IMG/VR virus record: IMGVR_UViG_2617270978_000023 | Direction: 5' to 3' (one strand) | DNA: 27,371 nucleotides | Source of the DNA: a virus | Lineage: Duplodnaviria > Heunggongvirae > Uroviricota > Caudoviricetes | Shown here: positions 2,600-16,613 of the stretch, in pieces | Position numbering within the stretch: position 1 is the stretch's first letter | Layout of the letters: each line of letters opens with the position of its first letter | The notes under the pieces: generated by a model | What the model was told of the DNA's origin: nothing | Database searches by the model: none | Seen by the model: the letters and a program-made list of their open reading frames with translations, nothing else | Translations under genes and position numbers: made by a program

Positions 2600-2886
2600 G
2601 TGTCTCACTTTTGTCCCAATACCAATCCGAATCCACCCTTTGTCATCATTGAGAAATGGCAAGGAAGAAAAGGATGTTACTGCACGATTTGACAAATCCG
2701 CCAGAGCTATCGCATACTGATCGCACTGAACAAATAAGCGGTCTCCGCACCCGATAGCTTTGCGGCTTTTTTATGCCTGCAATTTGGCATAGTTACATCC
2801 GTACAAAGGTCGGGTGGAGAGGCGTAATACAACACCCGCAAGGGGAATATGCCCAGAGCTTCTTATTTGGCTCAGTTGACACCCGA

Positions 2887-2907
2887 CCGCCAGCTACTAA
2901 CTGGCGG
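2887..2907 (+). promoter_or_regulatory. Inverted repeat CCGCCAG-n7-CTGGCGG in the leader of the first antirepressor gene
   Basis: Read directly; lies 30 nt upstream of the ATG at 2937. Confidence 0.35.
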
Positions 2908-2936
2908 TTATAAACTAAACAAATAAGGAGGTCATC

Positions 2937-3221
2937 ATGACCAGTCAACTCATCCCCGTATTCAACGGTTCTATCTCAAACCAAGCAGCCCTTCTATGCA
3001 ATGCTCGCAATCTACACGCTTTCCTTGGGGTTGGTAAACGCTTTGCATCGTGGATAACAGAACGTATTGCTGAATATGGTTTCGTTGAAAATCAGGACTA
3101 TATGATTGCTTCCCAAATTCGGGAAGCAAAAGGTAGAGGCGGTCACAACCGCAAGGAATACCACCTCACCCTCGACACAGCCAAAGAGCTTGCGATGGTT
3201 GACGACTGCGTCCAATACTGA
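2937..3221 (+). CDS. AntA-domain antirepressor-like protein, short paralog (94 aa)
   Basis: Strong RBS aaggaggtcatcATG. The N-terminus MTSQLIPVFNGSIS...NARNLHAFLGVGKRFASWITERIAEYGFVENQDY fits the AntA/AntB antirepressor N-terminal signature. It shares leader and N-terminus with the downstream paralog. Confidence 0.6.
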   Translation: MTSQLIPVFNGSISNQAALLCNARNLHAFLGVGKRFASWITERIAEYGFVENQDYMIASQIREAKGRGGHNRKEYHLTLDTAKELAMVDDCVQY

Positions 3222-3421
3222 CTATACTCCGCGCCGAGGCCTCGAAAACCTCCCAAAAGCGGATTAAACCAACCCCGTCAGTGTTGGATTTTTTATGCCT
3301 GTTATTCAGTGATAGCACAGTGTGCGGTCACATCCCCGATCAATGTCGGGAGGGCGACGAATACAACACCCGCAAGGGGAATAAGTCCGCGGTATCTTTT
3401 GGGCCGTTTCGAGCCTCCCGG

Positions 3422-3438
3422 CACCACATCTTGTGGTG
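3422..3438 (+). promoter_or_regulatory. Inverted repeat CACCACA-tct-TGTGGTG in the leader of the second antirepressor gene
   Basis: Read directly; about 32 nt upstream of the ATG at 3471. Confidence 0.35.
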
Positions 3439-3470
3439 GCATTTCTCGAAAAAAGCCAAAGGAGGTCATC

Positions 3471-4100
3471 ATGACCACTCAACTCATCCCTGTGTTTGAA
3501 GGTACAATCTCAAATGAACCTACGCTTCTGGTGAACGCGCGTGATTTGCATGGATTTTTAGAGGTAGGTAAAGATTTTTCTAACTGGATACGGGCCAGGC
3601 TAAACGAGTATGGATTCGTAGAAAATTTAGACTACATTCTATTTTCGCCAAATTTGGCGAAAACTCCAGGCCGCCGCCGCAAGGATTACCACCTCACCCT
3701 CGACACAGCCAAAGAGCTTGCGATGGTTGAACGTAACGAAAAAGGTCGCCAGATCCGCCGCTACTTCATCGAGTGCGAAAAGAAACTTCGCAACATTCAG
3801 CCAGTACAAGCAGAACCACAGCCGCAATTCACAGCCGAGGAAATCATCCTCCTTTGCTACATGCAGCTCTGGATGGAAAAAGCCCAGGACCTTAGCAAGC
3901 AGCTGTACCCCATAATGAAAGAGCTGAACTCCTCATACACGAACAAGCTGTATGACATTGCGTTTGAGACTATCTACATGGTGACGAAGAACAGAGATGT
4001 GCTACTGAGAGAGGCGGCACGGCTTGACCAGTCGAGTTTCGTAGTTCAGCGGGCCAGACCAATGCTGAAAAGCCTGCGGGCAAGACAATTTGAATTCTGA
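3471..4100 (+). CDS. Phage antirepressor with N-terminal AntA/AntB domain (209 aa)
   Basis: Same RBS as the first paralog (aaggaggtcatcATG). The product starts MTTQLIPVFEGTIS, parallel to the paralog. The six-frame ORF extends to 3309, but the internal ATG with the RBS is preferred. Confidence 0.7.
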   Translation: MTTQLIPVFEGTISNEPTLLVNARDLHGFLEVGKDFSNWIRARLNEYGFVENLDYILFSPNLAKTPGRRRKDYHLTLDTAKELAMVERNEKGRQIRRYFIECEKKLRNIQPVQAEPQPQFTAEEIILLCYMQLWMEKAQDLSKQLYPIMKELNSSYTNKLYDIAFETIYMVTKNRDVLLREAARLDQSSFVVQRARPMLKSLRARQFEF

Positions 4101-4105
4101 TACCA

Positions 4106-4129
4106 AAGGAGCTTCGGCTCCTTTTTTTA
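4106..4129 (+). terminator. Rho-independent terminator after the antirepressor gene
   Basis: Stem GGAGC-ttcg-GCTCC followed by TTTTTTT, directly after the stop at 4100. Confidence 0.7.
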
Positions 4130-4296: not shown

Positions 4297-5523
4297 ATGC
4301 CGGTAACTATAACAAAAATCAGAACTGGAGAAGATGTTTTGTCAGCAGCCATTCACCGCATTGAATGGTTGTTTGAAACATTCTCTTCTGTATGTTTATC
4401 TTTTTCTGGCGGTAAAGATTCCACTGTACTTTTCCATCTTGTAGCCGAAGTGGCCTACAGGAAGAAACGTCGTTTTTCTGTATTGTTCATTGACTGGGAA
4501 GCCCAGTATCAATGCACCATTGATCATATACAGAAGATGCGGATGATGTACCAAGATGTAACAGATACCTTTTACTGGGTTGCACTTCCCCTGACGACAG
4601 TAAATGGTGTCTCGCAGTTTCAGCCTGAGTGGATATGCTGGGAGCCCGGTGTAGAGTGGGTTCGACAGCCACCGGAAGATGCTATTACTGATATGGCGTA
4701 TTTCCCCTTTTACCGCTACGCCATGACTTTTGAAGAATTTGTCCCAGCTTTTTCTTCCTGGTTCGCAAGTAACCAATGTAGCGTGGCAATACTGACTGGA
4801 GTCCGCGCGGATGAATCTCTTAACAGATTTATGGGACTGGTTTCCCAACGAAAACTGAGATATGCAGATGATAAACCCTGGACCACGGCGTCACCTGAAG
4901 GTTTTTACTACACCATGTATCCGCTGTATGACTGGAAAACCAACGATATCTGGGTATATAACGCTAAAACCTGTGCAATCTACAATCCTCTGTATGATTT
5001 GATGTACCGTGCAGGCATTCCTCTACGTAATATGCGTGTCTGTGAGCCTTTTGGCCCGGAACAGCGTAAGGGACTATGGCTTTATCATGTTCTGGAGCCA
5101 GAAACTTGGGCACGGATGTGTGAACGAGTATCTGGTGCTGCCAGTGGGGCTCTTTATGCCAATGAAAGCGGGGCCTATTTTGCCCTGCGTAAACGGATGT
5201 CAAAACCATCCCATCATACCTGGCGCAGCTATGCGTTCTTCCTGCTGGACGTAATGCCGGAAAGAACGGCTGAACACTACCGCAACAAGATAGCAGTTTA
5301 CCTGCGCTGGTATCAGAACCGGGGATTCCCGGATGATATCCCGGATGAACAGGAAAATGATCTGGGCTGCCGGGATGTTCCCTCCTGGCGACGTATTTGT
5401 AAGACTCTCATAAAGAATGATTTCTGGTGCCGAACGCTCTCCTTCAGCCCCAACAAACCCCGGCACTATGAACGTTACCTGCAGCGTATGAATGAAAGGA
5501 GGAAGGAATGGGGAATTCTGTGA
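4297..5523 (+). CDS. ibrA: PP-loop ATPase / PAPS-reductase-like (DndC-like) protein, IbrA-like (408 aa)
   Basis: PP-loop motif SFSGGKDS near the N-terminus. Length and pairing with a ParB-like gene match the recalled ibrA/ibrB pair. The start has no strong SD, so its position is uncertain. Confidence 0.65.
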   Translation: MPVTITKIRTGEDVLSAAIHRIEWLFETFSSVCLSFSGGKDSTVLFHLVAEVAYRKKRRFSVLFIDWEAQYQCTIDHIQKMRMMYQDVTDTFYWVALPLTTVNGVSQFQPEWICWEPGVEWVRQPPEDAITDMAYFPFYRYAMTFEEFVPAFSSWFASNQCSVAILTGVRADESLNRFMGLVSQRKLRYADDKPWTTASPEGFYYTMYPLYDWKTNDIWVYNAKTCAIYNPLYDLMYRAGIPLRNMRVCEPFGPEQRKGLWLYHVLEPETWARMCERVSGAASGALYANESGAYFALRKRMSKPSHHTWRSYAFFLLDVMPERTAEHYRNKIAVYLRWYQNRGFPDDIPDEQENDLGCRDVPSWRRICKTLIKNDFWCRTLSFSPNKPRHYERYLQRMNERRKEWGIL

Positions 5524-6152
5524 CACCAGAGGTGGAGGTGCTGAGCAAGATGATTCGACAGTACTTCAGTCAGGAACAATCTGAAGAGAAAACCATACAG
5601 GCCCTGAACCATCTCCGCTGCGTACTCCATGAGATCAGCCCCTTTGCTCAAGAACCAGTGGACTGTGTGCTGTGGGTAAAAGCGGATGAAATTGTCGCTA
5701 ACGATTATAATCCCAATGTCATGGCCCCAAGCGAAAAAAAATTACTGAAACAATCTCTGGAAAAAGACGGTTTTACTCAACCAATTGTTGTTTCGGAAAA
5801 AACAAGCCATTACCTGGTGGTGGATGGTTTTCATAGGCAGTTACTAGGTAGAAGAACAGTTACTGGAAAACGCCTGAAAGGCTGGCTACCAGTAACCTGT
5901 ATTAATCCAGACCGAAAGGGACAAACCTCACGTATTGCCGCGACTATCCGACATAACAGAGCCAGGGGGAAACACCAGATAACCTCAATGTCTGATATTG
6001 TCAGAGATCTTTCACGTCTTGGCTGGACTGATGAACGTATCGGAACAGAACTGGGGATGGACCAGGATGAAGTTCTGAGGTTAAAGCAGATTAGCGGGCT
6101 AACGGAGTTATTTCAGCAGGCAGATTTCAGCCCTGCATGGACTGTTACATAA
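5508..6152 (+). CDS. ibrB: ParB/sulfiredoxin-like nuclease-domain protein, IbrB-like (214 aa)
   Basis: ParB N-terminal-type motif VVDGFHRQ. The start overlaps the ibrA stop by 16 nt, with RBS aggagga upstream, suggesting translational coupling. Confidence 0.65.
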   Translation: MGNSVTPEVEVLSKMIRQYFSQEQSEEKTIQALNHLRCVLHEISPFAQEPVDCVLWVKADEIVANDYNPNVMAPSEKKLLKQSLEKDGFTQPIVVSEKTSHYLVVDGFHRQLLGRRTVTGKRLKGWLPVTCINPDRKGQTSRIAATIRHNRARGKHQITSMSDIVRDLSRLGWTDERIGTELGMDQDEVLRLKQISGLTELFQQADFSPAWTVT

Positions 6153-6240: not shown

Positions 6241-6765
6241 CTACCTCAGATCACCTAATAATATATCAAGATTATTTTGCGCATTAATGCTATTCGCCAT
6301 TACTGTTGCTGCTTCTGGCAACTTTCCAAGAGCAATAAATATATTCTTAAGGCTGATTGGAATTGATGAACCATGCGGATCGCGCCACTCACCGCAAATT
6401 CTGTGAGTTTCATCACAAAGCCTGAACGCATCCCAACCTCCATATTGACCAAAAATTATGTCCATTGACTCTATTTCTGCGGGCGATAACTCCCCCAGCT
6501 CATCAACAGAAGAAAATGTACGCCACATTTCAACCTTATGATCCGCTACATCAGATATCCATGATTCCCACGGACTGTACTCGTTTTCACTTCCATCCTT
6601 AACCAAAGAATATGTCTGCGATAAAACGGGTCCTTTGTTCATAGAGAAATAATGATCACCACTAATGGGAAAACCATACAACTCCATTGCTTTGCGGTCA
6701 GAGAGATACATCAGCTTAATGAAACGCATAGATCCGCCATGTTTTTTCAGCAAATACGCTGCCAT
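6241..6765 (-). CDS. DUF4065 / Panacea-domain-like protein (SocA/GepA-type; candidate antitoxin) (174 aa)
   Basis: The N-terminal pattern IKLMYLSDRKAMELYGFPISGDHYFSMNKGPVLSQTY resembles the recalled DUF4065 signature (LKLQKLLYY...G.P....GPV..Y). It sits 150 nt downstream of the giant ORF on the same strand. Confidence 0.45.
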   Translation of the reverse strand: MAAYLLKKHGGSMRFIKLMYLSDRKAMELYGFPISGDHYFSMNKGPVLSQTYSLVKDGSENEYSPWESWISDVADHKVEMWRTFSSVDELGELSPAEIESMDIIFGQYGGWDAFRLCDETHRICGEWRDPHGSSIPISLKNIFIALGKLPEAATVMANSINAQNNLDILLGDLR

Positions 6766-6915: not shown

Positions 6916-9900
6916 TTAATCCACTCCCACTTTTTTGTTGTACTCGCGGTTAAAGCGATCCACGGCAACCTTCATATCCCGCTCTACCGATTTCACCATC
7001 GCCGCCTGCTGCGCCAGACTGAGAGAACTGTCGGCATAAATGGCATCGCGCTGTTTGCGCAAATCCTTCAGTCTCTTCCGGGTATCCTGCATAAGCCCGT
7101 TCATCAACAATTTTCCGTTGTTCTCGTCAATGAACGCCGTTCTTTCTGCACCGGTCAGACTCTTCAGCTCTGCGTGATACTGCGCAACCTCTGTCATCCG
7201 GTCGTACATCTTCTGCTGGTCTGCATACGGCATCACCTCACCCGAAATTTTCCCCAGGAAGGGCACCTGCTGCTCCGGTATATCAATACCGTTCAGCGAT
7301 TTCACCGCCGCATCTGTGGTTTTGGAAATGAAGCGCCCTGTCCCTCCGGAGATATAGTCAATCCAGAATTTCAGCGATTCCGGTGTGATATCCACCGCGC
7401 CGGGACGATACTGGCTGCCACCTGAGAACGCATTCAGCCAGGATGCAAACGCCTTGTACGCCTCAGGCGTTGAACGTCTGCCCAGTTGGCTGTCCGGTTT
7501 CGGTGTGCCAAATGGCATGTTCTCCTGGTAAATCTGCGCCCCCATGAAGTTTTCATTCATGGCAAGGTTCGCAAACGGACGCAGAATGGTCGGCGCTGCA
7601 TTTTTCAGCAATGCCCCGGACAGTGTTTCCGACGTTTCACTGCCCACAGGACTGAATGCCCCCAGGATACCACCGACAACATTACCGGCAGCACGTGAAG
7701 CAGTCAGGTCGCCCGCTGCCACACCTTCAGCAGTATGCCCGAGCAGGAAGAAAACGTTGTACCCGTAAGGCAGAGGAATACTCCAGTACTCTCCGGCCTT
7801 GCCCCCGAACACCGATTTCATAATGACGAGGTTACGCTCTTTCACATGAGACGGCACCTTGTCATACCAGTTAACCCCGTCATCATCCTCCCCCGCAACA
7901 CTGCGGTTAAGCGAGCCAAGCAGATAACCCGCTCCCACAGCTGCAAGCGCGATTTTCTGCGGTACATTGAGATTCTTCCAGCGAAGGCGCTCCGGTAACG
8001 GCCCGTCGCCATTAAGATGTCCGAGCGTTCTCACCAGGTTTGCGGTCCCCTGAATGCTGGCGTTGGCAAACATATACAGCGAGTTCATCAGCGCTCCCTG
8101 CTCACCACGACGGTTAAAGTTCACCGTCATGTTTTTGGCAAGAGATGCCGCCTGCTGGCGTGACAAACCGGCATCACGGGCGTGTTTATAGGCAGAAAGA
8201 CGCAGAGCGTTTTCAACCGCGCCGTTGGCATCCTCGACCAGGTTCAGGAACGAATGCCATGCACCGATACTCTGGCCTTTCCATCCTCCCTTCGCCAGCG
8301 ATACAAGGCGATCCATTTCCTTCTGCTGGCCTTCAAGGTCACCCATGTTAAACCAGCCGGTTTTACCTCCATCCTCAACAAACTCTTTCCACACCTTCTG
8401 CCACTGCGCACCGTTGCCCGTGAGGGTTTTACCACGCAGACTGGCGTATACGGCAGACATGGCAGACCGGCTGTCTTTCACCACAGCCAGGGCGGATAAG
8501 TTATCCAGCACTTTCAGTTTACCGTCGCTCCTTCCCTGCTCAGCCTTCAGGTTCATCACCGCCGTCTGCACGTCACGGATGAAGTTACTGACCAGAAATT
8601 CCGGGTTATACGACGTGTTCACCGTTGCCAGGAAACGGTTAACTTTCCCCAGCGTACGGATTACGGCGTTACTGGTTTCCGGCCCCATGTTCTTCATCGC
8701 ACGCATCAGGCGCGGGTCATGGAGTTTGATGTAGTAAGTTTTGCCGTCCTTTTTGGTGGTGAAGTAGCGATCCGCCATCATTGCCATAGGCACCGGACGT
8801 TCAACAACTTCGCGACGGGTTTCGCCGGTTTCCGGATCAACACGCTCTGCAATCGCCCGCATGGTGTCCGGTTTGTCATCAGTGAATACCTGCCAGTAAT
8901 CCTTATCGGGATTATCCTGCACCAGTTTCAGGAAGGCGTTACCCACTTCGTTTTTGCGATTGCGGATCAGCGATTCGCTCAAATCCTGTATCGCCTGAGT
9001 GGAAGGAGACTGTGCGCGGGATGCACGCCCCATGGCCTGCCTGCTTTCACGTCCGCCGATGGTGAAGCCCTTACCTGTACGGGGCAGTGACACCACACCG
9101 TCAACATCCTGACCTTTCAGGGGAACGTAGTAACGGTAGGCGTTCTGCCAGGCATCCACCACACCGCTCTCTTCCAGTCCGGCCTCACGGATAAGCTCAC
9201 GGCGACGGGCCAGCATATCGTCAACAATCCCTGCCAGACGGTCATACTGTGCCTGTTTGCCACTGTTACGCACACGCTGCATGATTTCCGCCGCTTCCGC
9301 GTTGGTCATCCCCGAACCGCCGTCCGGCATTTTCGGGTTGATTTTCGCGATATGCGCGTTACGTTCCGGCGCGTGACGGGCGTAGAGGTACTCATCCAGA
9401 TCGGCCTGCGCAATTTTGTAGTCCGCCAGTAATTTAGCCAGTGGCTGAACGTAGCGCTCCTTCATCACGTTCAGGTCGTTTTCCGCCTTCCCGTGGAAGA
9501 GTTCTTCCGCCATATAAGCGTTGTTACTGTCGTCTATTTTTCCGCCAGTTTTACGGATATTCTCCTGAACAGCTTTCAGCACCTGGAATTTATCCTGCAT
9601 CTGGCGCACAAAACGCGATGCAATTGTCTCTTCCGGTGTCAGACTGCTGGTACGGGAGTAATACGGCCCCTTGCGAATATCTTCAGGATAGAGTATTTTA
9701 TCTACAGAGCCGCGATAAGAACGCTCCTCTTTGGGCAATTGGAGCCCACTGTACTGAGGGTTATCGCGGCTTAATTTCTCCTTCCGGTAAAGCGTTAATC
9801 CAGCCATTTCCATACTTTTCAGCTTTTTCCCGTTTTCCGTACCGTAAACAGATGCCACCTTGTTAATTTCCAGACGTTTATCTGTCGCCTTCATATGCAC

Positions 9901-12900
9901 TGCCGAGACGACCGGATCACCATTTTTATCCACAGCATCAAGCAGCATCACAACCGCATTTCTTTCTGTCGCGGAACGGTAAATTGCATCCGGATTGTGC
10001 ATCAGTTCCGGAAGTCTCTCGATAACATCCATTGGCACCACATGTTTCACGCCATTGGTAGCCTTCCGCACAGTGTCGCGGGAGATAACCAGCGGCAAAT
10101 CTGGTGCGCCAAGGTGGCGCAATACCGGCGGCGTACGCCCGATGTTTGCAGTCATTGCACCAGAACGTAACGACTTCATCATTCTGGCAAGGTCATCACG
10201 ATAACGCTCGCCCTCACCTTCCGGCACTTTGAACGGATCAGGCTTACCGCTACGGGAGTACTGAGACGATGCGCCAGCGCCATCCTCACGCGGCGTGTAA
10301 CCTTCCCGCACACGCTGGCCTAACGTGCGAATAGTTTCGCGAACAAGTCTGATATCGTTCAGCTCTGTCGGCTTCAGTAACCCCGTGCGACGCAGTACCC
10401 CTTTGACCAGGGCAACAACACGCTCCCACGCCGCCACAAATTTATTCGGCTGTTTCTCCGCCATATGTGCCAGAAATTCACCTGCCTGCACTTCCGGTGA
10501 TTCCTTACCATAAGACGCATCAACCTTACGCCAGGCGTCACGGATGGTGGCGTTATCACTGTCACGGGTTTTCAGTACGGTCTTAATAATCGTCTGATAT
10601 TCCGCTGGCGTGACTACATGCTCCATTGCATGGTGGATAATCTCGTGACGCAGCTTCTCGCGAACGGTCCGCCCGTCAGGAATGTTATCCGCCACCAGGA
10701 CAATTTCACGTTTATCCGGACGATAGAACGCATGCACCCTGCCGTAACCGTCGAACGATTCCCCCGCCAGCGCTTCAGCCTCTTTCTGTGACTTCACCAC
10801 GCGGACCTTCAGGTCACTGTCCTTAATGCCACTCATCACGCCACGGGCAACCGCTTCAACCTGCGGGACCGGGCTGCCTTTGGCTTCCGCACTGCGGTTA
10901 ACATCCGAAATGAGATTGCCTTCAGGTGTGCGGGTCACGCCCTTACGGGAATAAAACGCAACGCCCTTGTCCGTCTTACGGGTTTTCAGCGTACTGAACA
11001 GGTGATCGAATGCATCACGAATACCGCCATCCAGTTCCGCATTCGTCGGATAAGCCCAGGTGTTATCTGTGTTGTGCTCAGGTGCCTTACGGATATTGAC
11101 CAGATAATCATTCTCCACGCCAGCCGTACGCGCTTTATCCTGAACATAACGCTCAAAGGCACGCGCCGCCATTTCAACATCCGTTGACCAGTACGGTTTT
11201 GAGCGCACCTCATCGAGAAGCGCTGAACGACGCGGCATGTCACTGCTGTTGATCGCTTTCATCACGCCTTTAAACGCGTCGTAAACCTCCTGACGTACCG
11301 GATATTCCGCATAAACATATCTGCCGTCTTTAAATACGCGCCCGGCACGCTGTGCTTCCGTCATATAGTCGCCACCTGACGTGATCTTCCCGTCAGTGGA
11401 AACATCATAACGACCAAAATAATTATCCAGTGAATGGAACCATTCGTGGGCCAGCGCCCCCGGTCCGTTACCTTTTGTCAGGTTGATTGCCACCTCACCC
11501 GGCTCATAGTGTGCCGCCGCCTTACCCTTACCACGGGCACCAAAAGCAAGCCCAAGACGACCGTTCAGAGAAAGCGCTTTTGTCGGCACGTTCAGCACAT
11601 CAGCCAGGTCATGCAGCGAGTCATAAGCCCGGTTCAAATCAGCCTGACGACGCGGACCTTCCACATAATTACCAAACTGCACACCACGAAAACCAAACGC
11701 ATCGCTGAACTGCTTCGGTGAGACATCACCCTTGCGGCGTTCTGGCCCGGTACGATCGCGGTTGGTGGCGTTACGCTGCTCCTCACGGGAAATCTCACGC
11801 ATCTCCTTCACATGACGAACAAGCTCATCACGATGTGAATCAATGTACTTACGCGCATCACTGGCTGACTTAAAGCCACCTCTCACCCGCATTTTGTTTT
11901 TGCCGTAAGCAATAAAAATATCGCCACTGCGGGTATTCCGGTATACGTCAAAGCTGATTTTGTCATCCGGTGACGGTGCTGTTTTTTCATCACCTTTCGC
12001 CTGTGATTTTTCCTCCTGCTCTGCAAACCAGGCTTTTGCCTTTGTCAGTAATTCATCCCTGCTTTCCGAGAAAAAGAGATTGCTCCCCTTATTGTCCTTA
12101 TTGCGCAGTGAATAAAGTTTCCGTGGCGGATCGTAACGTTTCCCTCCTGCCGCCTGATACACACCGGATACCACCCGATAAGCAGAAGCCTTGTCTATCT
12201 GCGAGGGTGGCAGCGTGCGTAACAGTTGCCATGTGTCCGCGTAACGGGCGGGCATTCTGCCTTCCATCCACTCAGCAAGCCGTCCGGCAGTCACTTTTCC
12301 TTCCAGCATTCCCGCCACACTTGTGCGGATGCTCTTTACACTCTCCACCCACTTCACTGCATTGAGTTTCGTCTTCGCCGGAATATCGCTACGATACAGC
12401 GCTATCATTGCCAGGGTATCAGCATCGGCACCTTCGTTCGCCAGTTTTGCGTAGTCCGGTTTCGGGAACACTTTGCTCAGCGGCTGCGTGAAATAATCCC
12501 TGTCTTCCAGCGTTTTACCCAGTGTTTCGGCAAGCTGTGCATAACGGTGTTTTGCCGCGCCCTTAATCTCCTCGCCAAAGTCTTCAATTTTTGCACCACG
12601 CGCCTGCTGGTGAGTGCTCGGTTTATCTACCGGCACCGGCACCTCAGTATCCGGAACATCGGTTATGGTCTGGCGATTATCCCCGGTCTGTCTGCGTGCT
12701 TCTGCCTGCTGTGCCAGTTCCGGAAGGGAGTCACGAACCATACGAGGGAGTGATTCAGGATGTGGCATATCAACCCCACGCTGTTCAGGTGCAGGAAGTC
12801 CTTCACGCACTGGTGCTGTGGCGTTCTGCTCATCCGGTGACGGCAGACCACGACGAACCGGTTCGCTCTCCAGTATTTCCCCCTGGCGACCAGCGGCATT

Positions 12901-15279
12901 TTCCGGTGCCTGCGCACGTCCTTTCTGGAAACTCTGGCCCTTCACCTCACCGGTTGTGGTAAAACGACCACCACGTCCGGCCTGATTTTCATCCGGCGTA
13001 CGCGCCACTTCTCCTGGTAACGGATATCCCTGTCCGGGATGAATATCGCCGGGAGCGGGAAGGCGTGGACGCTCAGTTAACTCCTGTGCTGTCGGACCGG
13101 CATCACCTTCAGCCATCTGTGAACGTACAAGCTCCTCTGCCGTCGGCGCGTTGCCACGGGCAAGGCGGGCCTGCACTTCTGTATCATCCCCCGTGAAACC
13201 ACGGAATCGCGGGTCACGCATGAACGCGGGCTGCTCCATCGGTTCAGCATCAGCAATACGCTCTCCGTCAGCCAGGGTGTTAATGGTCTCCGTTGCCACA
13301 TCTTCAGAGAACGCAGGATTATCCATTTCAACGGCATACTGATTCTCGCCTTTCTTCACTACGGACGGTTTCAGGCCGGTGGCGCTGGCATTGCGGAAAA
13401 CGTCGCTCCCCAGAGCACTTTTTTCATCCGTGAAATAACGGTTGTCCGGACGCACCTTTTCAATGCGTTCTGCTGGTCTGGACGCACCACTCCCGTTAAT
13501 TTCAATACGAACTTCATCCGGATCGCGGAACCGCACCGTCGGGTAAATACTCCCGTCGCCATCATCCGCATTTTCCGGCTGTGGCTGTGCCTCCGGTCTG
13601 GCCTCCTGCTGAGGGCGAAGCACATCACGGATAGCCTGTAACTGCTGCTCTTCAGTATCAGTACGCCCTTCCTTCAGGCTGAGTTTTCGGTATTCCTCAA
13701 GCAGTTCAGGGCGCGGCTTCGCCTTCAGCTCATCCATCACCGCCTGTCGCTTCGCCTGTTCATCCAGTTCATTTAACAGCTGGCTGGCGGCTTCCCGGCG
13801 ATGAACGGCAGACGTGTCTCCCTCAGGTGCCATATCCGCATCAGCATACTGTTCCAGAAGTTGCTCGCGATTCATGCCCTGCATGGATTCGCGATGCTGT
13901 GCCACCGGATCAGCCGGTTCGGGTTGCGGGGCTGCTTCACCCTGCTGTACGACTTCAGCCTCACGCATGGCGGTTTCTTCTGCGGCCTGACGTTTTCCAC
14001 GATATCCGGCAACCGCACCGAACGGTGCGCCCATCGCAGCACCAAGGGCTGCACCTTCGATCGTTGCGTCAGCCACGCCCTCCCACGGTGACACATCCAT
14101 TCCGGCGGTCTCACGCAATGCCGTGTTTTCCTGATAGCGTGAATAGCCACCCTGCGCCGCATTAATCGTCCCCTGTTCCGTGGCATTTCTGACAATGCCG
14201 CTTTTAACGGTCTTCGCCGTGCCCCGCATCGCCAGATTAAACAACTGAGCATCGCCCAGTTTTGCCGCCATGGCATTCACAGCCAGCAATTCAGGATCGG
14301 TTGCCAGCTGCGCGCGCACCTCATCGGCAACACGCTCTTTTGCCAGATCCATTTTCTGGCGATCAGTAAGCTGTGCGTGCTGCGGATCTGCATCAATTGA
14401 CAAAAACGTCTGCTGAAATTTCGGGGACTTCGCCAGCTCAGAGTAATCCGCGTTAAGAACAGAGTCTGCTGCTGCCATTGCACTCTGCCCCTGTGCGCTG
14501 GCTGAGGAATGGGTGATCAGGCCTGCCTGGAATAAATCCGGCATTTTTTTATCGACAGCTTCTGCTGCCAGTGCGGTAGCTCTTTCCGGCTGCATCCCTG
14601 CCGCAATGTATTTTTTCTCCAGCCCGGCGGTCAGCACTTTTCGCAGAGTGACTTCACCCAGCTTTTTAGTCACACCGCCTGCAACCATATCCGGTACAAG
14701 CGCACCAATCAGGTTTACGCCCTTCGCCACCCAGACCGCAGAATCATCATATCCTTCAGTCATCGGTGTATTCAGCGCCCGCTGCGCCCCCGGCGACATC
14801 TTGCCAGTCAGCCATTCATCCGAGGCTTTAGCGCCGCCACTGACTGCCTTGCCTGTGACCTTCAGACCTTTACCGACAGTATCAGTAACCGCATTTTTTC
14901 CATCAGGCAGAGTGTCGATGACCTCATCCGCCCCCTTGCTGCCACCGACAAAAATATCCTGAACAGTTGCGACTCCCGGCAGCCCCATACGGCTGAACTC
15001 ATTTAAAATACGCGCTCCTGTTTTTACCGGGCTCTGAATCATCGCATCACCGAGTCCACGGGCCATTTCCCCTGCCCCCCGGACGGACTGGGCGACACCT
15101 TTCCCCATAGTTGGCAATACATCGCCCAGGCTGAACGACGTGCTGTTGTCCTTCCAGCGATTGGGATCGGAGAAAAACGCATCATAGCTGTCAGTCTCGC
15201 CCGGCTGCTGAATGTTCAGGCTGTTGCGGTTCTGGTTGCCAAATTGCGCTTCAGGGCGCTGTTCATCGGAATAAGCCAT
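6916..15279 (-). CDS. Giant 2787-aa phage protein with two HExxH zinc-peptidase-like motifs; candidate polyvalent or injected virion protein
   Basis: Uninterrupted 8.4-kb ORF. Contains HEWFH at 11434-11448 (about aa 1278) and HEIIHHAMEH at 10618-10647 (about aa 1545). The N-terminal 430 aa are Gly/Ala-rich; about aa 430-860 are Pro/Gln/Glu-rich low complexity. Antisense ORFs across it are short. Confidence 0.85.
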   Translation of the reverse strand: MAYSDEQRPEAQFGNQNRNSLNIQQPGETDSYDAFFSDPNRWKDNSTSFSLGDVLPTMGKGVAQSVRGAGEMARGLGDAMIQSPVKTGARILNEFSRMGLPGVATVQDIFVGGSKGADEVIDTLPDGKNAVTDTVGKGLKVTGKAVSGGAKASDEWLTGKMSPGAQRALNTPMTEGYDDSAVWVAKGVNLIGALVPDMVAGGVTKKLGEVTLRKVLTAGLEKKYIAAGMQPERATALAAEAVDKKMPDLFQAGLITHSSASAQGQSAMAAADSVLNADYSELAKSPKFQQTFLSIDADPQHAQLTDRQKMDLAKERVADEVRAQLATDPELLAVNAMAAKLGDAQLFNLAMRGTAKTVKSGIVRNATEQGTINAAQGGYSRYQENTALRETAGMDVSPWEGVADATIEGAALGAAMGAPFGAVAGYRGKRQAAEETAMREAEVVQQGEAAPQPEPADPVAQHRESMQGMNREQLLEQYADADMAPEGDTSAVHRREAASQLLNELDEQAKRQAVMDELKAKPRPELLEEYRKLSLKEGRTDTEEQQLQAIRDVLRPQQEARPEAQPQPENADDGDGSIYPTVRFRDPDEVRIEINGSGASRPAERIEKVRPDNRYFTDEKSALGSDVFRNASATGLKPSVVKKGENQYAVEMDNPAFSEDVATETINTLADGERIADAEPMEQPAFMRDPRFRGFTGDDTEVQARLARGNAPTAEELVRSQMAEGDAGPTAQELTERPRLPAPGDIHPGQGYPLPGEVARTPDENQAGRGGRFTTTGEVKGQSFQKGRAQAPENAAGRQGEILESEPVRRGLPSPDEQNATAPVREGLPAPEQRGVDMPHPESLPRMVRDSLPELAQQAEARRQTGDNRQTITDVPDTEVPVPVDKPSTHQQARGAKIEDFGEEIKGAAKHRYAQLAETLGKTLEDRDYFTQPLSKVFPKPDYAKLANEGADADTLAMIALYRSDIPAKTKLNAVKWVESVKSIRTSVAGMLEGKVTAGRLAEWMEGRMPARYADTWQLLRTLPPSQIDKASAYRVVSGVYQAAGGKRYDPPRKLYSLRNKDNKGSNLFFSESRDELLTKAKAWFAEQEEKSQAKGDEKTAPSPDDKISFDVYRNTRSGDIFIAYGKNKMRVRGGFKSASDARKYIDSHRDELVRHVKEMREISREEQRNATNRDRTGPERRKGDVSPKQFSDAFGFRGVQFGNYVEGPRRQADLNRAYDSLHDLADVLNVPTKALSLNGRLGLAFGARGKGKAAAHYEPGEVAINLTKGNGPGALAHEWFHSLDNYFGRYDVSTDGKITSGGDYMTEAQRAGRVFKDGRYVYAEYPVRQEVYDAFKGVMKAINSSDMPRRSALLDEVRSKPYWSTDVEMAARAFERYVQDKARTAGVENDYLVNIRKAPEHNTDNTWAYPTNAELDGGIRDAFDHLFSTLKTRKTDKGVAFYSRKGVTRTPEGNLISDVNRSAEAKGSPVPQVEAVARGVMSGIKDSDLKVRVVKSQKEAEALAGESFDGYGRVHAFYRPDKREIVLVADNIPDGRTVREKLRHEIIHHAMEHVVTPAEYQTIIKTVLKTRDSDNATIRDAWRKVDASYGKESPEVQAGEFLAHMAEKQPNKFVAAWERVVALVKGVLRRTGLLKPTELNDIRLVRETIRTLGQRVREGYTPREDGAGASSQYSRSGKPDPFKVPEGEGERYRDDLARMMKSLRSGAMTANIGRTPPVLRHLGAPDLPLVISRDTVRKATNGVKHVVPMDVIERLPELMHNPDAIYRSATERNAVVMLLDAVDKNGDPVVSAVHMKATDKRLEINKVASVYGTENGKKLKSMEMAGLTLYRKEKLSRDNPQYSGLQLPKEERSYRGSVDKILYPEDIRKGPYYSRTSSLTPEETIASRFVRQMQDKFQVLKAVQENIRKTGGKIDDSNNAYMAEELFHGKAENDLNVMKERYVQPLAKLLADYKIAQADLDEYLYARHAPERNAHIAKINPKMPDGGSGMTNAEAAEIMQRVRNSGKQAQYDRLAGIVDDMLARRRELIREAGLEESGVVDAWQNAYRYYVPLKGQDVDGVVSLPRTGKGFTIGGRESRQAMGRASRAQSPSTQAIQDLSESLIRNRKNEVGNAFLKLVQDNPDKDYWQVFTDDKPDTMRAIAERVDPETGETRREVVERPVPMAMMADRYFTTKKDGKTYYIKLHDPRLMRAMKNMGPETSNAVIRTLGKVNRFLATVNTSYNPEFLVSNFIRDVQTAVMNLKAEQGRSDGKLKVLDNLSALAVVKDSRSAMSAVYASLRGKTLTGNGAQWQKVWKEFVEDGGKTGWFNMGDLEGQQKEMDRLVSLAKGGWKGQSIGAWHSFLNLVEDANGAVENALRLSAYKHARDAGLSRQQAASLAKNMTVNFNRRGEQGALMNSLYMFANASIQGTANLVRTLGHLNGDGPLPERLRWKNLNVPQKIALAAVGAGYLLGSLNRSVAGEDDDGVNWYDKVPSHVKERNLVIMKSVFGGKAGEYWSIPLPYGYNVFFLLGHTAEGVAAGDLTASRAAGNVVGGILGAFSPVGSETSETLSGALLKNAAPTILRPFANLAMNENFMGAQIYQENMPFGTPKPDSQLGRRSTPEAYKAFASWLNAFSGGSQYRPGAVDITPESLKFWIDYISGGTGRFISKTTDAAVKSLNGIDIPEQQVPFLGKISGEVMPYADQQKMYDRMTEVAQYHAELKSLTGAERTAFIDENNGKLLMNGLMQDTRKRLKDLRKQRDAIYADSSLSLAQQAAMVKSVERDMKVAVDRFNREYNKKVGVD

Positions 15280-15347: not shown

Positions 15348-16613
15348 TTACTGCGCGTAATTCTGTTTCAGACCACGGATAAACTCAGATGCAGAGGCCG
15401 CACTATCATCTCTGGCCTGTTCCCCCCTGGCCTTTTGAATACGGAGAAAATTCGCATACCCGTTCTCCAGCAATTTCTGATTCTGAGGCTCCAGCATTTC
15501 TGGCTGACGGGAAGCAACTTCTCTGGCGAATGCCTGCTTATCCGGATCATCACCCGCCCAACTGGTAATCCCTTGTTGAATTTTTTGCTGCTGAATTTGC
15601 TGCTGATACTGCGGCAGTCCCATCGAAGCATAATATTGCGTCACTGCTCCCTGCGCATCACCGCCGTCCTGTGCAACCTTTATCGCTACCTGGCTGGCTC
15701 CTTTCTGAAGTTGATCCGCAGAAAGTCCCTGCTGCTTCGGCGTGAAATAGCCGAAATTTTTCGAAATTTCCGCGAATTTACTGCGATCCCTGACAAGCTC
15801 AACAGCCTTATCAACAGGCACCGCCAGCACGGTTTGATCATCAGGATGTGCACTGCCGTATTCCGTAACGGGTTTATGTGCTGTAGAGCCATCACTGTAT
15901 GTGAGATCAAGGCCGATAAGTATGTACCCTTCCTGCTGTGCCGGTACTATACTGCCAATCCTGGCCTCTTTTATCGTCTTTTTCCCGGTTGAATCGGGCA
16001 TGCCAATACGCTGTTGCAGTTCCGGGCCAAACACCCCGGAAAGGACATCAAGATTCTCCGGCGTATTAAGTGAAGCGATAGCCCTGTCCGGCTTGTCATC
16101 AAAGATTTTTTGCAGGTTGTTCACGGCCTGACCCGCTTTCGCTACATAGCCATCATTCGCCATCAGCCTCAGCGGATTACCCTCTGACAACTGGCCGTAA
16201 AGACGCATTGCTGCATCCCGATCGCCAGCATCCACAGCCTTTCCAAGCGCCGCCATCACAGGCTGATCGCGCGCCAGCATATCGTTATACTCAAGCCGTC
16301 GCTGGTTGTATTTCTGCATCCGGAGTCGCTGCTGCTCCATACCCAGCGACGCATTCCGGTAATTCTGGTTGGCGTTAAACTCCCTTTCCTGCAGTGCATA
16401 ATTACGGTCGTCGACTTTGGCTCTGTAATCAAAGTTCCGCTGATCAACGTCTTTATTATGTTCAAACTGCGACTGTGCAAATTCAAAATCGCGCTCGTTA
16501 TTTTTCTGTTGTTGAGCAAGCTGTGCTTCTCGCAAACCAAGTTCCTTACGACGGGTCATTGCCTGGTCAACCGTGCTGAATCCGGCAAGTAAACCCTGTG
16601 CAAATCCGCTCAT
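15348..16613 (-). CDS. Hypothetical phage protein (421 aa), Gln-rich with coiled-coil character
   Basis: Long ORF tightly packed with its neighbours on the same strand; no recognisable motif. Confidence 0.6.
   Translation of the reverse strand: MSGFAQGLLAGFSTVDQAMTRRKELGLREAQLAQQQKNNERDFEFAQSQFEHNKDVDQRNFDYRAKVDDRNYALQEREFNANQNYRNASLGMEQQRLRMQKYNQRRLEYNDMLARDQPVMAALGKAVDAGDRDAAMRLYGQLSEGNPLRLMANDGYVAKAGQAVNNLQKIFDDKPDRAIASLNTPENLDVLSGVFGPELQQRIGMPDSTGKKTIKEARIGSIVPAQQEGYILIGLDLTYSDGSTAHKPVTEYGSAHPDDQTVLAVPVDKAVELVRDRSKFAEISKNFGYFTPKQQGLSADQLQKGASQVAIKVAQDGGDAQGAVTQYYASMGLPQYQQQIQQQKIQQGITSWAGDDPDKQAFAREVASRQPEMLEPQNQKLLENGYANFLRIQKARGEQARDDSAASASEFIRGLKQNYAQ

Follow-up and report, generated by a model that had tools for sequence, protein, structure and literature searches.

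Why do two antirepressor genes that stand in tandem, the first of them cut short, share parts of their leaders to the letter, and what do those leaders do? This question is raised by a 27,371-nucleotide (nt) stretch of DNA from a virus of the Caudoviricetes (IMG/VR virus record IMGVR_UViG_2617270978_000023), the whole of which we refer to as the window. It carries a prophage that is 100% identical to Escherichia phage PhiR5_2, in which two AntA-domain genes come first after the phage end, their transcription running inward. An original prediction, made from the letters alone, had described the open reading frames (ORFs), a leader of about 25 nt and a Shine-Dalgarno (SD) block shared by both genes, and a different inverted repeat in each leader; these descriptions hold with small coordinate corrections, the shared leader being 24 nt long. 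We find that each leader encodes an RNA of the sRNA-Xcc1 family, and we consider it likely that the two RNAs are tandem, separately addressed antisense-RNA locks on antirepressor genes, resembling the C4 RNA of immI regions of the P1 c4-ant type, with one of the locks guarding the truncated gene.

The Rfam scan of the window returned two matches, both to RF02221 (sRNA-Xcc1) and both covering model positions 1-87 of 87. Their scores lie above the gathering score of 53, and both RNAs are therefore full-length members of the family first described in Xanthomonas campestris. The architecture comprises a closing stem (P1) that encloses two hairpins: hairpin 1, with the core motif and a GNAA tetraloop, and the variable hairpin 2, from which a short junction (J) leads back to P1. 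In the covariance-model (cmscan) alignments, the hairpin-1 motif AAUACAA-N-ACCC-GNAA-GGGG-AAU is exact in both copies. The parts of the two RNAs are as follows.

2808-2896, plus strand: sRNA-Xcc1 RNA, copy 1 (RNA 1; RF02221, 69.1 bits)
2808-2817 and 2880-2888, plus strand: closing stem P1 of RNA 1
2826-2848, plus strand: hairpin-1 core of RNA 1
2856-2873, plus strand: hairpin 2 of RNA 1, with its antisense stretch at 2859-2869
2874-2880, plus strand: junction J of RNA 1
2889-2892, plus strand: tail of RNA 1 after P1, GCCA
3345-3430, plus strand: sRNA-Xcc1 RNA, copy 2 (RNA 2; RF02221, 73.4 bits)
3345-3354 and 3414-3422, plus strand: closing stem P1 of RNA 2
3360-3382, plus strand: hairpin-1 core of RNA 2
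3388-3407, plus strand: hairpin 2 of RNA 2
3395-3402, plus strand: antisense loop of RNA 2, TCTTTTGG
3407-3413, plus strand: junction J of RNA 2, TTTCGAG
3423-3426, plus strand: tail of RNA 2 after P1, ACCA

The 24 nt that are identical in the two leaders (AATACAACACCCGCAAGGGGAATA, 2826-2849 and 3360-3383) are the invariant hairpin-1 motif of RF02221. Since this RNA core is invariant throughout the family, its identity in the two copies reflects constraint and not recent duplication. The second identical block, of 19 nt (AAGGAGGTCATCATGACCA, 2925-2943 and 3459-3477), holds the SD sequence and the start codon. The 23-nt core pattern, with 21 specified bases, is exact at 2826-2848 and 3360-3382 and also in loci L128-L247 of our collection; a scan of one genome per species found the exact core in Gamma-, Beta-, Alpha- and Deltaproteobacteria, Acidobacteria, Bacteroidota and Verrucomicrobia.

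To place the two leaders in the context of their family, we scanned the IMG/VR viral contigs for the exact core AATACAANACCCGNAAGGGGAAT and assembled 78 non-redundant viral leaders, together with an independent set of 89 leaders from genomes (one per species), which gives about 170 loci for the pairing tests. When leaders are set side by side, the loop of hairpin 2 is complementary to bases 5' of and within the downstream SD sequence, and loop and target change together. The loop CUUCUUAUUUG of copy 1 in the window faces the target CAAAUAAGGAG; in Shigella phage 75/02 the pair is CUUCUUGUAAG and CUUACAAGGAG, in locus L008 UCUUUGAAG and CUUCAAAGG, and in locus L014 UCUCGUUGA and UCAACGAGG. Compensatory pairs can be seen by eye, as in UUAUUUG/CAAAUAA against UUGUAAG/CUUACAA. 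J is in turn complementary to a second box between SD and a third hairpin that follows the RNA (UUUCGAG/CUCGAAA, UUCUAA/UUAGAA and UUCUUAA/UUAAGAA). Both boxes occur a second time 5' of the RNA, where a terminator-like hairpin and then the motif TTTTTTATGC come after them; such a hairpin, here called T1, is present in most family members. We denote the upstream boxes a1 (for J) and b1 (for the loop) and the downstream ones a2 and b2. In the window they are found at these positions.

2725-2729, plus strand: module 1 a1, ACTGA, complementary to J (read from the sequence)
2731-2738, plus strand: module 1 b1, CAAATAAG, complementary to the hairpin-2 loop (read from the sequence)
2745-2772, plus strand: module 1 T1, terminator-like hairpin (CCGCA, 11-nt loop, TGCGG, TTTTTT)
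2912-2916, plus strand: module 1 a2, AAACT, a weak 4-bp match to J
2920-2930, plus strand: module 1 b2, CAAATAAGGAG, overlapping the SD sequence AAGGAGG (2925-2931)
3241-3247, plus strand: module 2 a1, CTCGAAA, in a small hairpin loop (stem GAGG 3236-3239 with CCTC 3249-3252)
3252-3259, plus strand: module 2 b1, CCCAAAAG (read from the sequence)
3269-3294, plus strand: module 2 T1, terminator-like hairpin (CCAAC, 9-nt loop, GTTGG, A, TTTTTT)
3445-3451, plus strand: module 2 a2, CTCGAAA, complementary to J
3455-3463, plus strand: module 2 b2, GCCAAAGGA, overlapping the SD sequence AAGGAGG (3459-3465)

The covariation holds across the family. Duplexes between the loop plus J and the 32 nt before the start codon have a mean of -20.0 kcal/mol for cognate and -12.6 kcal/mol for non-cognate combinations of the 78 viral leaders, and of -20.6 against -16.6 kcal/mol in the 89 leaders of the genome set; for the upstream boxes the values are -29.5 and -23.5 kcal/mol. 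None of 10,000 permutations reached the cognate value in any of the three comparisons. The median length of the longest contiguous helix is 8 bp in cognate and 6 bp in non-cognate pairs, and the 78 leaders hold 64 distinct target segments, most of which end 5-11 nt ahead of the start codon. Module 1 of the window forms an 11-bp contiguous helix (2859-2869 with 2920-2930), a length of at least 11 bp being found in 63 of 6006 non-cognate pairs, and module 2 forms helices of 8 and 7 bp. RNA 1 has duplex energies of -19.5 kcal/mol with its own a1/b1 and -18.8 kcal/mol with its own downstream site, and RNA 2 of -21.8 and -19.8 kcal/mol with its own a1/b1 and a2/b2. On the corresponding sites of module 1, RNA 2 reaches only -11.7 kcal/mol (upstream) and -7.4 kcal/mol (downstream). 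The separate control of the two genes that had been suspected from their inverted repeats is thus plausible and right in spirit, with the specificity residing in the hairpin-2 loop and J and not in the repeats.

The genes that follow the RNA point in the same direction. At most loci of the IMG/VR exact-core scan, an ORF with an SD sequence begins 72-97 nt past the core, and the spacing to the start codon is 80-99 nt in 71 of 114 loci. Among the 114 unique downstream ORF products of the viral contigs, the N-terminal domain is of antirepressor type in 91, six Pfam families being represented (AntA 21, KilA-N 20, Bro-N 17, P22_AR_N 14, Phage_pRha, or Rha, 11, and ORF6N 8), and 32 have a P22_AR_C domain; in the one-genome-per-species set, 50 of 102 downstream products are of antirepressor type. 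These counts indicate that the RNA goes together with the beginnings of antirepressor-like genes, irrespective of the domain family to which they belong. As a separate observation, in Rhodanobacter, Dyella and relatives of Xanthomonas (L134, L141, L147, L195, L200, L202 and others) the RNA precedes proteins of about 220-250 amino acids (aa) that begin with MSTFDSDDLETTGYFLPEDSQLRLK and have no Pfam match.

The layout of these modules is that of the C4 system of P1 and P7 (RF01695, in clan CL00128 with c4-a1b1), also present in N15. In the P1 record, C4 RNA occupies 48343-48419, a1/b1 lie upstream, a2 directly after the RNA and b2 10 nt ahead of the icd start; according to the annotation, C4 binds to target sites in the icd-ant mRNA and represses their translation. 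In the P1 sequence, b2 (GUUAGUGA) has its complement in the loop UCACUAAC, and a2 (UUGACAG) in the junction CUGUCAA. Citron and Schuster (1990) reportedly likewise have c4 regulating ant through complementary regions. The Rfam alignment of C4 has a UUCG hairpin inside the closing stem, then a second hairpin whose 12-nt loop is antisense, and an antisense junction, with CCACC after the stem. Shared with the window modules are thus the position of the RNA in the 5' leader of an antirepressor operon; the closing stem, structural hairpin, second hairpin with a loop antisense to b2 on the SD sequence, and junction antisense to a2; the duplicate a1/b1 pair upstream (2725-2738 and 3241-3259 in the window); the leader terminator that separates a1/b1 from the RNA (observed in N15 and the C4 module of PhiR5_2, P1 being outside this comparison); the closing stem followed by a tail containing CCA or CCC; and addresses that differ among phages. 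In most of the 78 leaders, the 3' strand of P1 is followed within 4 nt by CC and then A or C, the commonest four-base tails being ACCA (13), CCAC (11), GCCC (10), CCCT (9) and CCCA (8).

The two systems differ in several respects. The closing stem of sRNA-Xcc1 has 9-10 bp and that of C4 17; hairpin 1 is a 23-nt ultraconserved motif with a GNAA tetraloop, in contrast to the simple UUCG hairpin of C4; an extra hairpin 3 stands between the RNA and a2; and the taxonomic range of sRNA-Xcc1 is far wider. PhiR5_2 itself has both types. Beyond the window, its isrK/c4-a1b1 element (16298-16385) and C4 RNA (16412-16496) precede a third antirepressor gene that starts at 16550 (module L249:16298-17224), with the same layout of boxes and with a T1 terminator that is again followed by TTTTTTTATGC; in N15, isrK and C4 likewise stand ahead of the antirepressor operon. 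This third antirepressor gene of PhiR5_2 lies in the nin region, so that one phage has three RNA-guarded modules with two types of RNA.

By analogy with the C4 RNAs of P1, P7 and N15, we propose the following mechanism. Each cassette would consist, in this order, of a promoter, a1/b1, T1, an sRNA-Xcc1 RNA of 85-90 nt, hairpin 3, a2/b2 with b2 on the SD sequence, and the antirepressor gene, and the RNA would be made as the 5' part of the mRNA of its own antirepressor. Pairing of the hairpin-2 loop and J with a2/b2 would occlude the ribosome-binding site (RBS) and leave the antirepressor untranslated in the lysogen, while pairing with a1/b1 in the nascent leader would probably favour termination at T1 and so provide feedback on the whole cassette. 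With different addresses, the two RNAs would lock two genes separately, module 1 giving rise to the truncated AntA-only product and module 2 to the complete antirepressor. The VT2-Sakai H0160 module has the same antisense part as RNA 1 and the same b2 box, letter for letter; because the address is shared, RNA 1 could act in trans on a co-resident or incoming Shiga toxin (Stx) phage of the VT2-Sakai type. CCA-dependent processing of C4 by RNase P was reportedly described by Hartmann et al. in 1995, and the window RNAs, with their stem followed by RCCA (GCCA and ACCA), would possibly be processed in the same way.

Several observations weigh against this proposal. The hairpin-1 core is conserved far beyond what a scaffold hairpin should need, and a simple antisense role does not explain this extreme conservation. 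The direction of regulation, at the window locus and in the enterobacterial members alike, is inferred from the C4 systems, to which homology is unproven, and the likeness may be convergent: the window RNAs have no detectable sequence or covariance-model similarity to C4, and the C4, c4-a1b1 and isrK models gave no match on 2650-3500 even at E values up to 10, although C4-type models clearly match P1, N15 and the third antirepressor module of PhiR5_2. Since the C4 covariance model misses them, we regard the window modules as being of the same design as C4 and not as members of its family. Here, moreover, the antirepressor itself would be regulated, 41-45 nt past the RNA, with no icd-like ORF or translational coupling. 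In module 1 the match of a2 to J is weak (4 bp), and RNA 1 reaches -17.8 kcal/mol on the SD region of module 2, close to the -18.8 kcal/mol on its own, mainly through the SD sequence, so that orthogonality is one-directional in this crude duplex measure. When 41 leaders were aligned with MAFFT, RNAalifold gave no consensus pairs, because the loops vary in length and the boxes are thereby shifted against one another; the evidence for covariation therefore rests on the permutation tests of cognate against non-cognate duplexes and helix lengths. Finally, in Xanthomonadaceae, where the RNA precedes symE or genes of unknown function, the complementarity of the loop to the SD sequence is not obvious, and the RNA may work differently there.

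The alternative that survives best, though we think it unlikely, is that each leader is a cis-acting switch, similar to a riboswitch or a factor-sensing leader, in which hairpin 1 would bind a ligand or a universal host factor and the RNA would act on its own transcript alone instead of diffusing as an antisense RNA, pairing with a1/b1 (SD sequence free) being the ON and pairing with a2/b2 (SD sequence blocked) the OFF state. Such a switch would suit a single antisense segment with two alternative sets of partners on the same transcript, and the minimum free energy (MFE) fold of 3235-3485 does join the a1/b1 stretch of module 2 to its hairpin-2 loop and J. It would also give a role to the 21 specified core bases, identical from Enterobacteria to Acidobacteria, Bacteroidota and Verrucomicrobia, whose counterpart in C4 is a plain UUCG stem-loop. 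However, no ligand or factor is known, the same layout in P1 belongs to an RNA annotated as a repressor of translation, with which Citron and Schuster reportedly agree, and the discrete 88-nt species seen in Xanthomonas fits a released RNA. A bolder combination, to which we likewise give only a small chance, would make hairpin 1 the handle by which a universal factor or ligand toggles the address loop between the a1/b1 decoys and the SD boxes, the whole being a widespread, programmable switch and RNA 1 doubling as a trans-immunity device against Stx phages of matching address. Were this so, prophages would fire their antirepressors, and integron cassettes toxins such as SymE, on a cellular signal independent of LexA/RecA.

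The view closest to the original prediction is that of a mosaic duplication in which the short copy is a decaying pseudogene, the shared leaders are remnants that have not yet diverged, and ordinary promoters together with the two inverted repeats regulate the genes. The features that bear on it are the following.

2937-3221, plus strand: short AntA-domain-only gene ("AntB" type), 94 aa (Pfam AntA at residues 21-89, model positions 1-66 of 68)
3471-4100, plus strand: full-length antirepressor gene, 209 aa, with an AntA N-terminal and a P22_AR_C C-terminal domain (Pfam; PHROG 377)
4105-4124, plus strand: terminator after the 209-aa gene (terminator scan)
3159-3202, plus strand: 44-nt block that recurs unchanged at 3687-3730, located where the AntA domain ends and at the right end of unit 1 (sequence comparison)
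2689-2718, plus strand: module 1 promoter-like site, TTGACA-18-CATACT, agreeing with the consensus at 10 of 12 positions; also the module's left boundary
3199-3228, plus strand: module 2 promoter-like site, TTGACG-18-TATACT, 10 of 12 consensus matches, overlapping the 3' end of the short ORF
2887-2907, plus strand: hairpin 3 of module 1, 7-bp stem CCGCCAG/CTGGCGG, its 5' arm taking in the GCCA tail
3422-3438, plus strand: hairpin 3 of module 2, 6-bp stem CACCAC/GTGGTG

Much of what had been said of the genes themselves stands. The two antirepressor modules are paralogous, and both proteins match Pfam AntA (PF08346), with 89.8 bits (E = 1.8e-25) for the 94-aa and 93.6 bits (E = 1.1e-26) for the 209-aa protein against a gathering cutoff of 27. 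Only the long protein has P22_AR_C, and it matches PHROG 377, "anti-repressor Ant", with an E value of 2.3e-96; a comparison with solved structures gave no informative match for the antirepressor. The short gene is indeed a truncated variant with AntA only, its truncation point coinciding with the end of the domain. The Prokaryotic Genome Annotation Pipeline (PGAP) annotates it as a pseudogene lacking the C-terminus, and the GenBank record of phage Stx2a_F451 marks a matching gene in the same way, which favours decay. The short protein matches PHROG 6904 end to end (residues 1-94 against 1-95 of the 95-residue profile), so that the form has a PHROG of its own, and across the AntA domain it shares 98% identity with a database protein of 150 aa that bears the name "AntB". 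Its last six codons and stop (GAC GAC TGC GTC CAA TAC TGA) form the -35 element and spacer of the module 2 promoter; that the tail of the ORF is a by-product of promoter sequence also speaks for this view. The resulting DDCVQY is common to ten sampled short alleles (92-95 aa), a Salmonella allele having a tail of the same length that has diverged.

The duplication, too, is partly right. The two units, 2689-3198 and 3199-3726, both begin with the -35 TTGAC and are both followed by TTGA; a junction of this kind is expected if a TTGA microhomology was the site of a tandem duplication or received a second cassette by insertion. The shared internal stretch that had been noticed is present and longer than reported, extending over 44 nt. 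Coding DNA around it is only about 70% identical between the copies, and if this is taken as independent per-site matches the chance of 44 identical nt is 0.7^44, or about 1.5e-7; the block is likely a recombination tract or crossover site. With a synonymous divergence (dS) of about 1.5, the two copies are not recent. Homology of module 1 across phages starts at the -35 hexamer, upstream of which their sequences differ, and its homology to the VT2-Sakai H0160 module ends at 3202; every copy-2-type module in the comparison has the module 2 promoter-like site upstream, its TTGACG joined to one and the same AntA 3' end. Evidently the N-domain and RNA region is exchanged among phages. The ratio of nonsynonymous to synonymous divergence (dN/dS) among short alleles, 0.34-0.35, is uninformative on selection for the short product, since recombination has brought N-domain alleles copied from full-length genes onto one fixed junction.

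What does not stand is the leader as a remnant, and on the whole we judge this explanation improbable. The 24-mer is exact in unrelated phyla and ahead of six unrelated N-domain families, being the conserved sRNA-Xcc1 core. Module 1 retains its promoter, a1/b1, T1, RNA, b2 and SD sequence, with a perfect 11-bp match of loop and SD region, and where its leader and N-domain have been swapped for those of other alleles, matched loop-target pairs are retained. The inverted repeats, which had been proposed as different control sites, are hairpin 3, predicted at a conserved position with variable sequence in 69 of the 78 leaders. As an intrinsic terminator hairpin 3 was rejected: it lacks a T-run in the inspected examples and is absent from the output of the terminator scan, and the window stems are followed by TTATAAAC and GCATTTCT, hairpin 3 of module 1 having TTAT directly after it.

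It is very improbable that these RNAs are trans-acting, Hfq-dependent small RNAs (sRNAs) for host or virulence genes that lie before antirepressors by coincidence, as the literature label, the HrpG/HrpX control and the many predicted host targets proposed in Xanthomonas and Xylella might suggest, for those targets are computational predictions only, and an incidental position cannot explain a loop that co-varies with the adjacent SD region at a tightly conserved distance from the start codon.

Returning to the C4-like locks, the published record of the family can be set beside them. The founding member differs from the window RNAs in lying in an integron cassette upstream of symE and in being described as a trans-acting, virulence-linked sRNA. 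An 88-nt Northern band was reported in Xanthomonas (PMC2996969) and the position upstream of symE in Xanthomonas integron cassettes in bioRxiv 10.1101/2025.06.18.660453. In Xylella the RNA was seen by RNA-seq and described as virulence-linked and trans-acting with predicted targets, and the Temecula1 strain has five modules spaced by about 385 nt at 1,313,466-1,315,082 (PMC12189769). APSE phages have one copy upstream of an ORF6N gene (bioRxiv 10.1101/2020.03.17.996009), and sRNA-Xcc1 is listed among the sRNAs of genomes of Shiga toxin-producing E. coli (PMC12370729). In our incomplete coverage of the literature, we found no link between sRNA-Xcc1 and antirepressors as a rule, or with C4-like control. 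Because such arrays occur elsewhere, the tandem arrangement in the window is not unique; in our own data, two tandem modules were also observed in an IMG/VR contig (L101:7043-7286) and in Oxalobacter (L194:5418-7286).

Other antirepressor systems resemble parts of this locus. The AntA/AntB pair (PF08346), reportedly first named by Sandt et al. in 2002 from the IbrAB island of E. coli ECOR-9, has the same short and long AntA-domain genes in tandem directly upstream of ibrA/ibrB homologues; as far as could be checked, its description differs in saying nothing of leader RNAs. P22 sar, an antisense RNA whose transcription runs over the ant start on the other strand, and IsrK of the Salmonella Gifsy phages also tie a small RNA to antirepressor control, but IsrK has another structure (RF01394) and no match in the window. 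The 24B_1 RNA, of microRNA size and with a reported effect on d_ant of phage 24B, was considered as a counterpart and rejected, as it maps between lom and vb_24B_43 and not here. For the ant gene of phage 24B, whose orthology to the window gene is not established, Fogg et al. reported that deletion left superinfection unchanged and proposed a role in efficient prophage induction (PMC3064807).

The consequences of C4-like control would reach beyond this prophage. At present sRNA-Xcc1, annotated by Rfam in many genomes, is read as an sRNA that acts in trans, is linked to virulence and has predicted targets in host and plant; the covariation indicates that its variable loop is addressed to the RBS of the adjacent, mostly antirepressor, gene, which would change how matches to the family are interpreted. 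Control in the style of the P1 immI region would widen from a few phage groups to prophages of several phyla, and a phage presumably of lambda immunity would have three RNA-guarded antirepressor modules, two with sRNA-Xcc1 and one with canonical C4. We base the immunity label on the cI-cro intergenic region of PhiR5_2, which we take to be the lambda OR. The address that RNA 1 has in common with the Stx2 phage VT2-Sakai bears on prophage cross-talk, induction control and toxin release, and the 64 natural loop-target pairs are a possible source of mutually orthogonal translational repressors.

The modules have a few further elements. The motif TTTTTTATGCCTG is common to both 3' of T1; the terminator scan overlooked T1 of module 1, whose loop is longer than 8 nt. 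The T1 loops (2750-2757 and 3274-3281, and those of related loci) share (A/C)CCCGNNAG, for example ACCCGATAG and CCCCGTCAG, which resembles ACCCGNAAG of the RNA core. Between T1 and RNA 2 lies one more element.

3309-3331, plus strand: imperfect 23-bp palindrome, GTGATAGCACA-G-TGTGCGGTCAC (sequence)

Half of this palindrome is missing in module 1, where there is a 13-nt gap, and the rest of the phage genome holds no second copy of it; it is a possible operator. Control by LexA was rejected, as neither 2689-2718 nor 3199-3228 has a sequence nearby that fits the LexA consensus. The spacer of the module 1 promoter contains CCGCCAGAG, which resembles part of the lambda OR1 operator and was rejected as evidence of CI control; VT2-Sakai, presumably of a different immunity type, has CCTCCAGAG there. 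Lambda CI control was also rejected for the single-copy palindrome.

In the window, positions 1-2397 are E. coli ynfF, followed by a remnant of ynfG that the prophage interrupts near 2509. The prophage thus sits in ynfG, the 4Fe-4S subunit gene of the YnfEFGH selenate reductase, of which a short 5' remnant is left at 2398-2510 beside ynfF. The late region of PhiR5_2 is 933W-like and of the short-tailed type. Directly 3' of the AntA pair, 4297-6152 hold an IbrA-like gene (phosphoadenosine phosphosulfate (PAPS) reductase and DUF3440 domains) and an IbrB-like gene (ParB N-terminal domain), which the PhiR5_2 record labels as co-activators of prophage gene expression. They are followed on the minus strand by a gene with a Panacea (SocA-like antitoxin) domain at 6241-6765, whose toxin partner is not obvious, and by the adjoining gene of a 2787-aa LPD38-domain protein with an HEWFH zincin-like motif (6916-15279), annotated as frameshifted in one chromosome record. 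At the other side of the modules, 2564-2603 contain two direct copies of ATGCAAAGCTTTGT, 20 bp apart and each with the palindrome CAAAGCTTTG; lying about 60-90 bp inside the prophage end, these repeats may be arm sites of the integrase or of an accessory factor.

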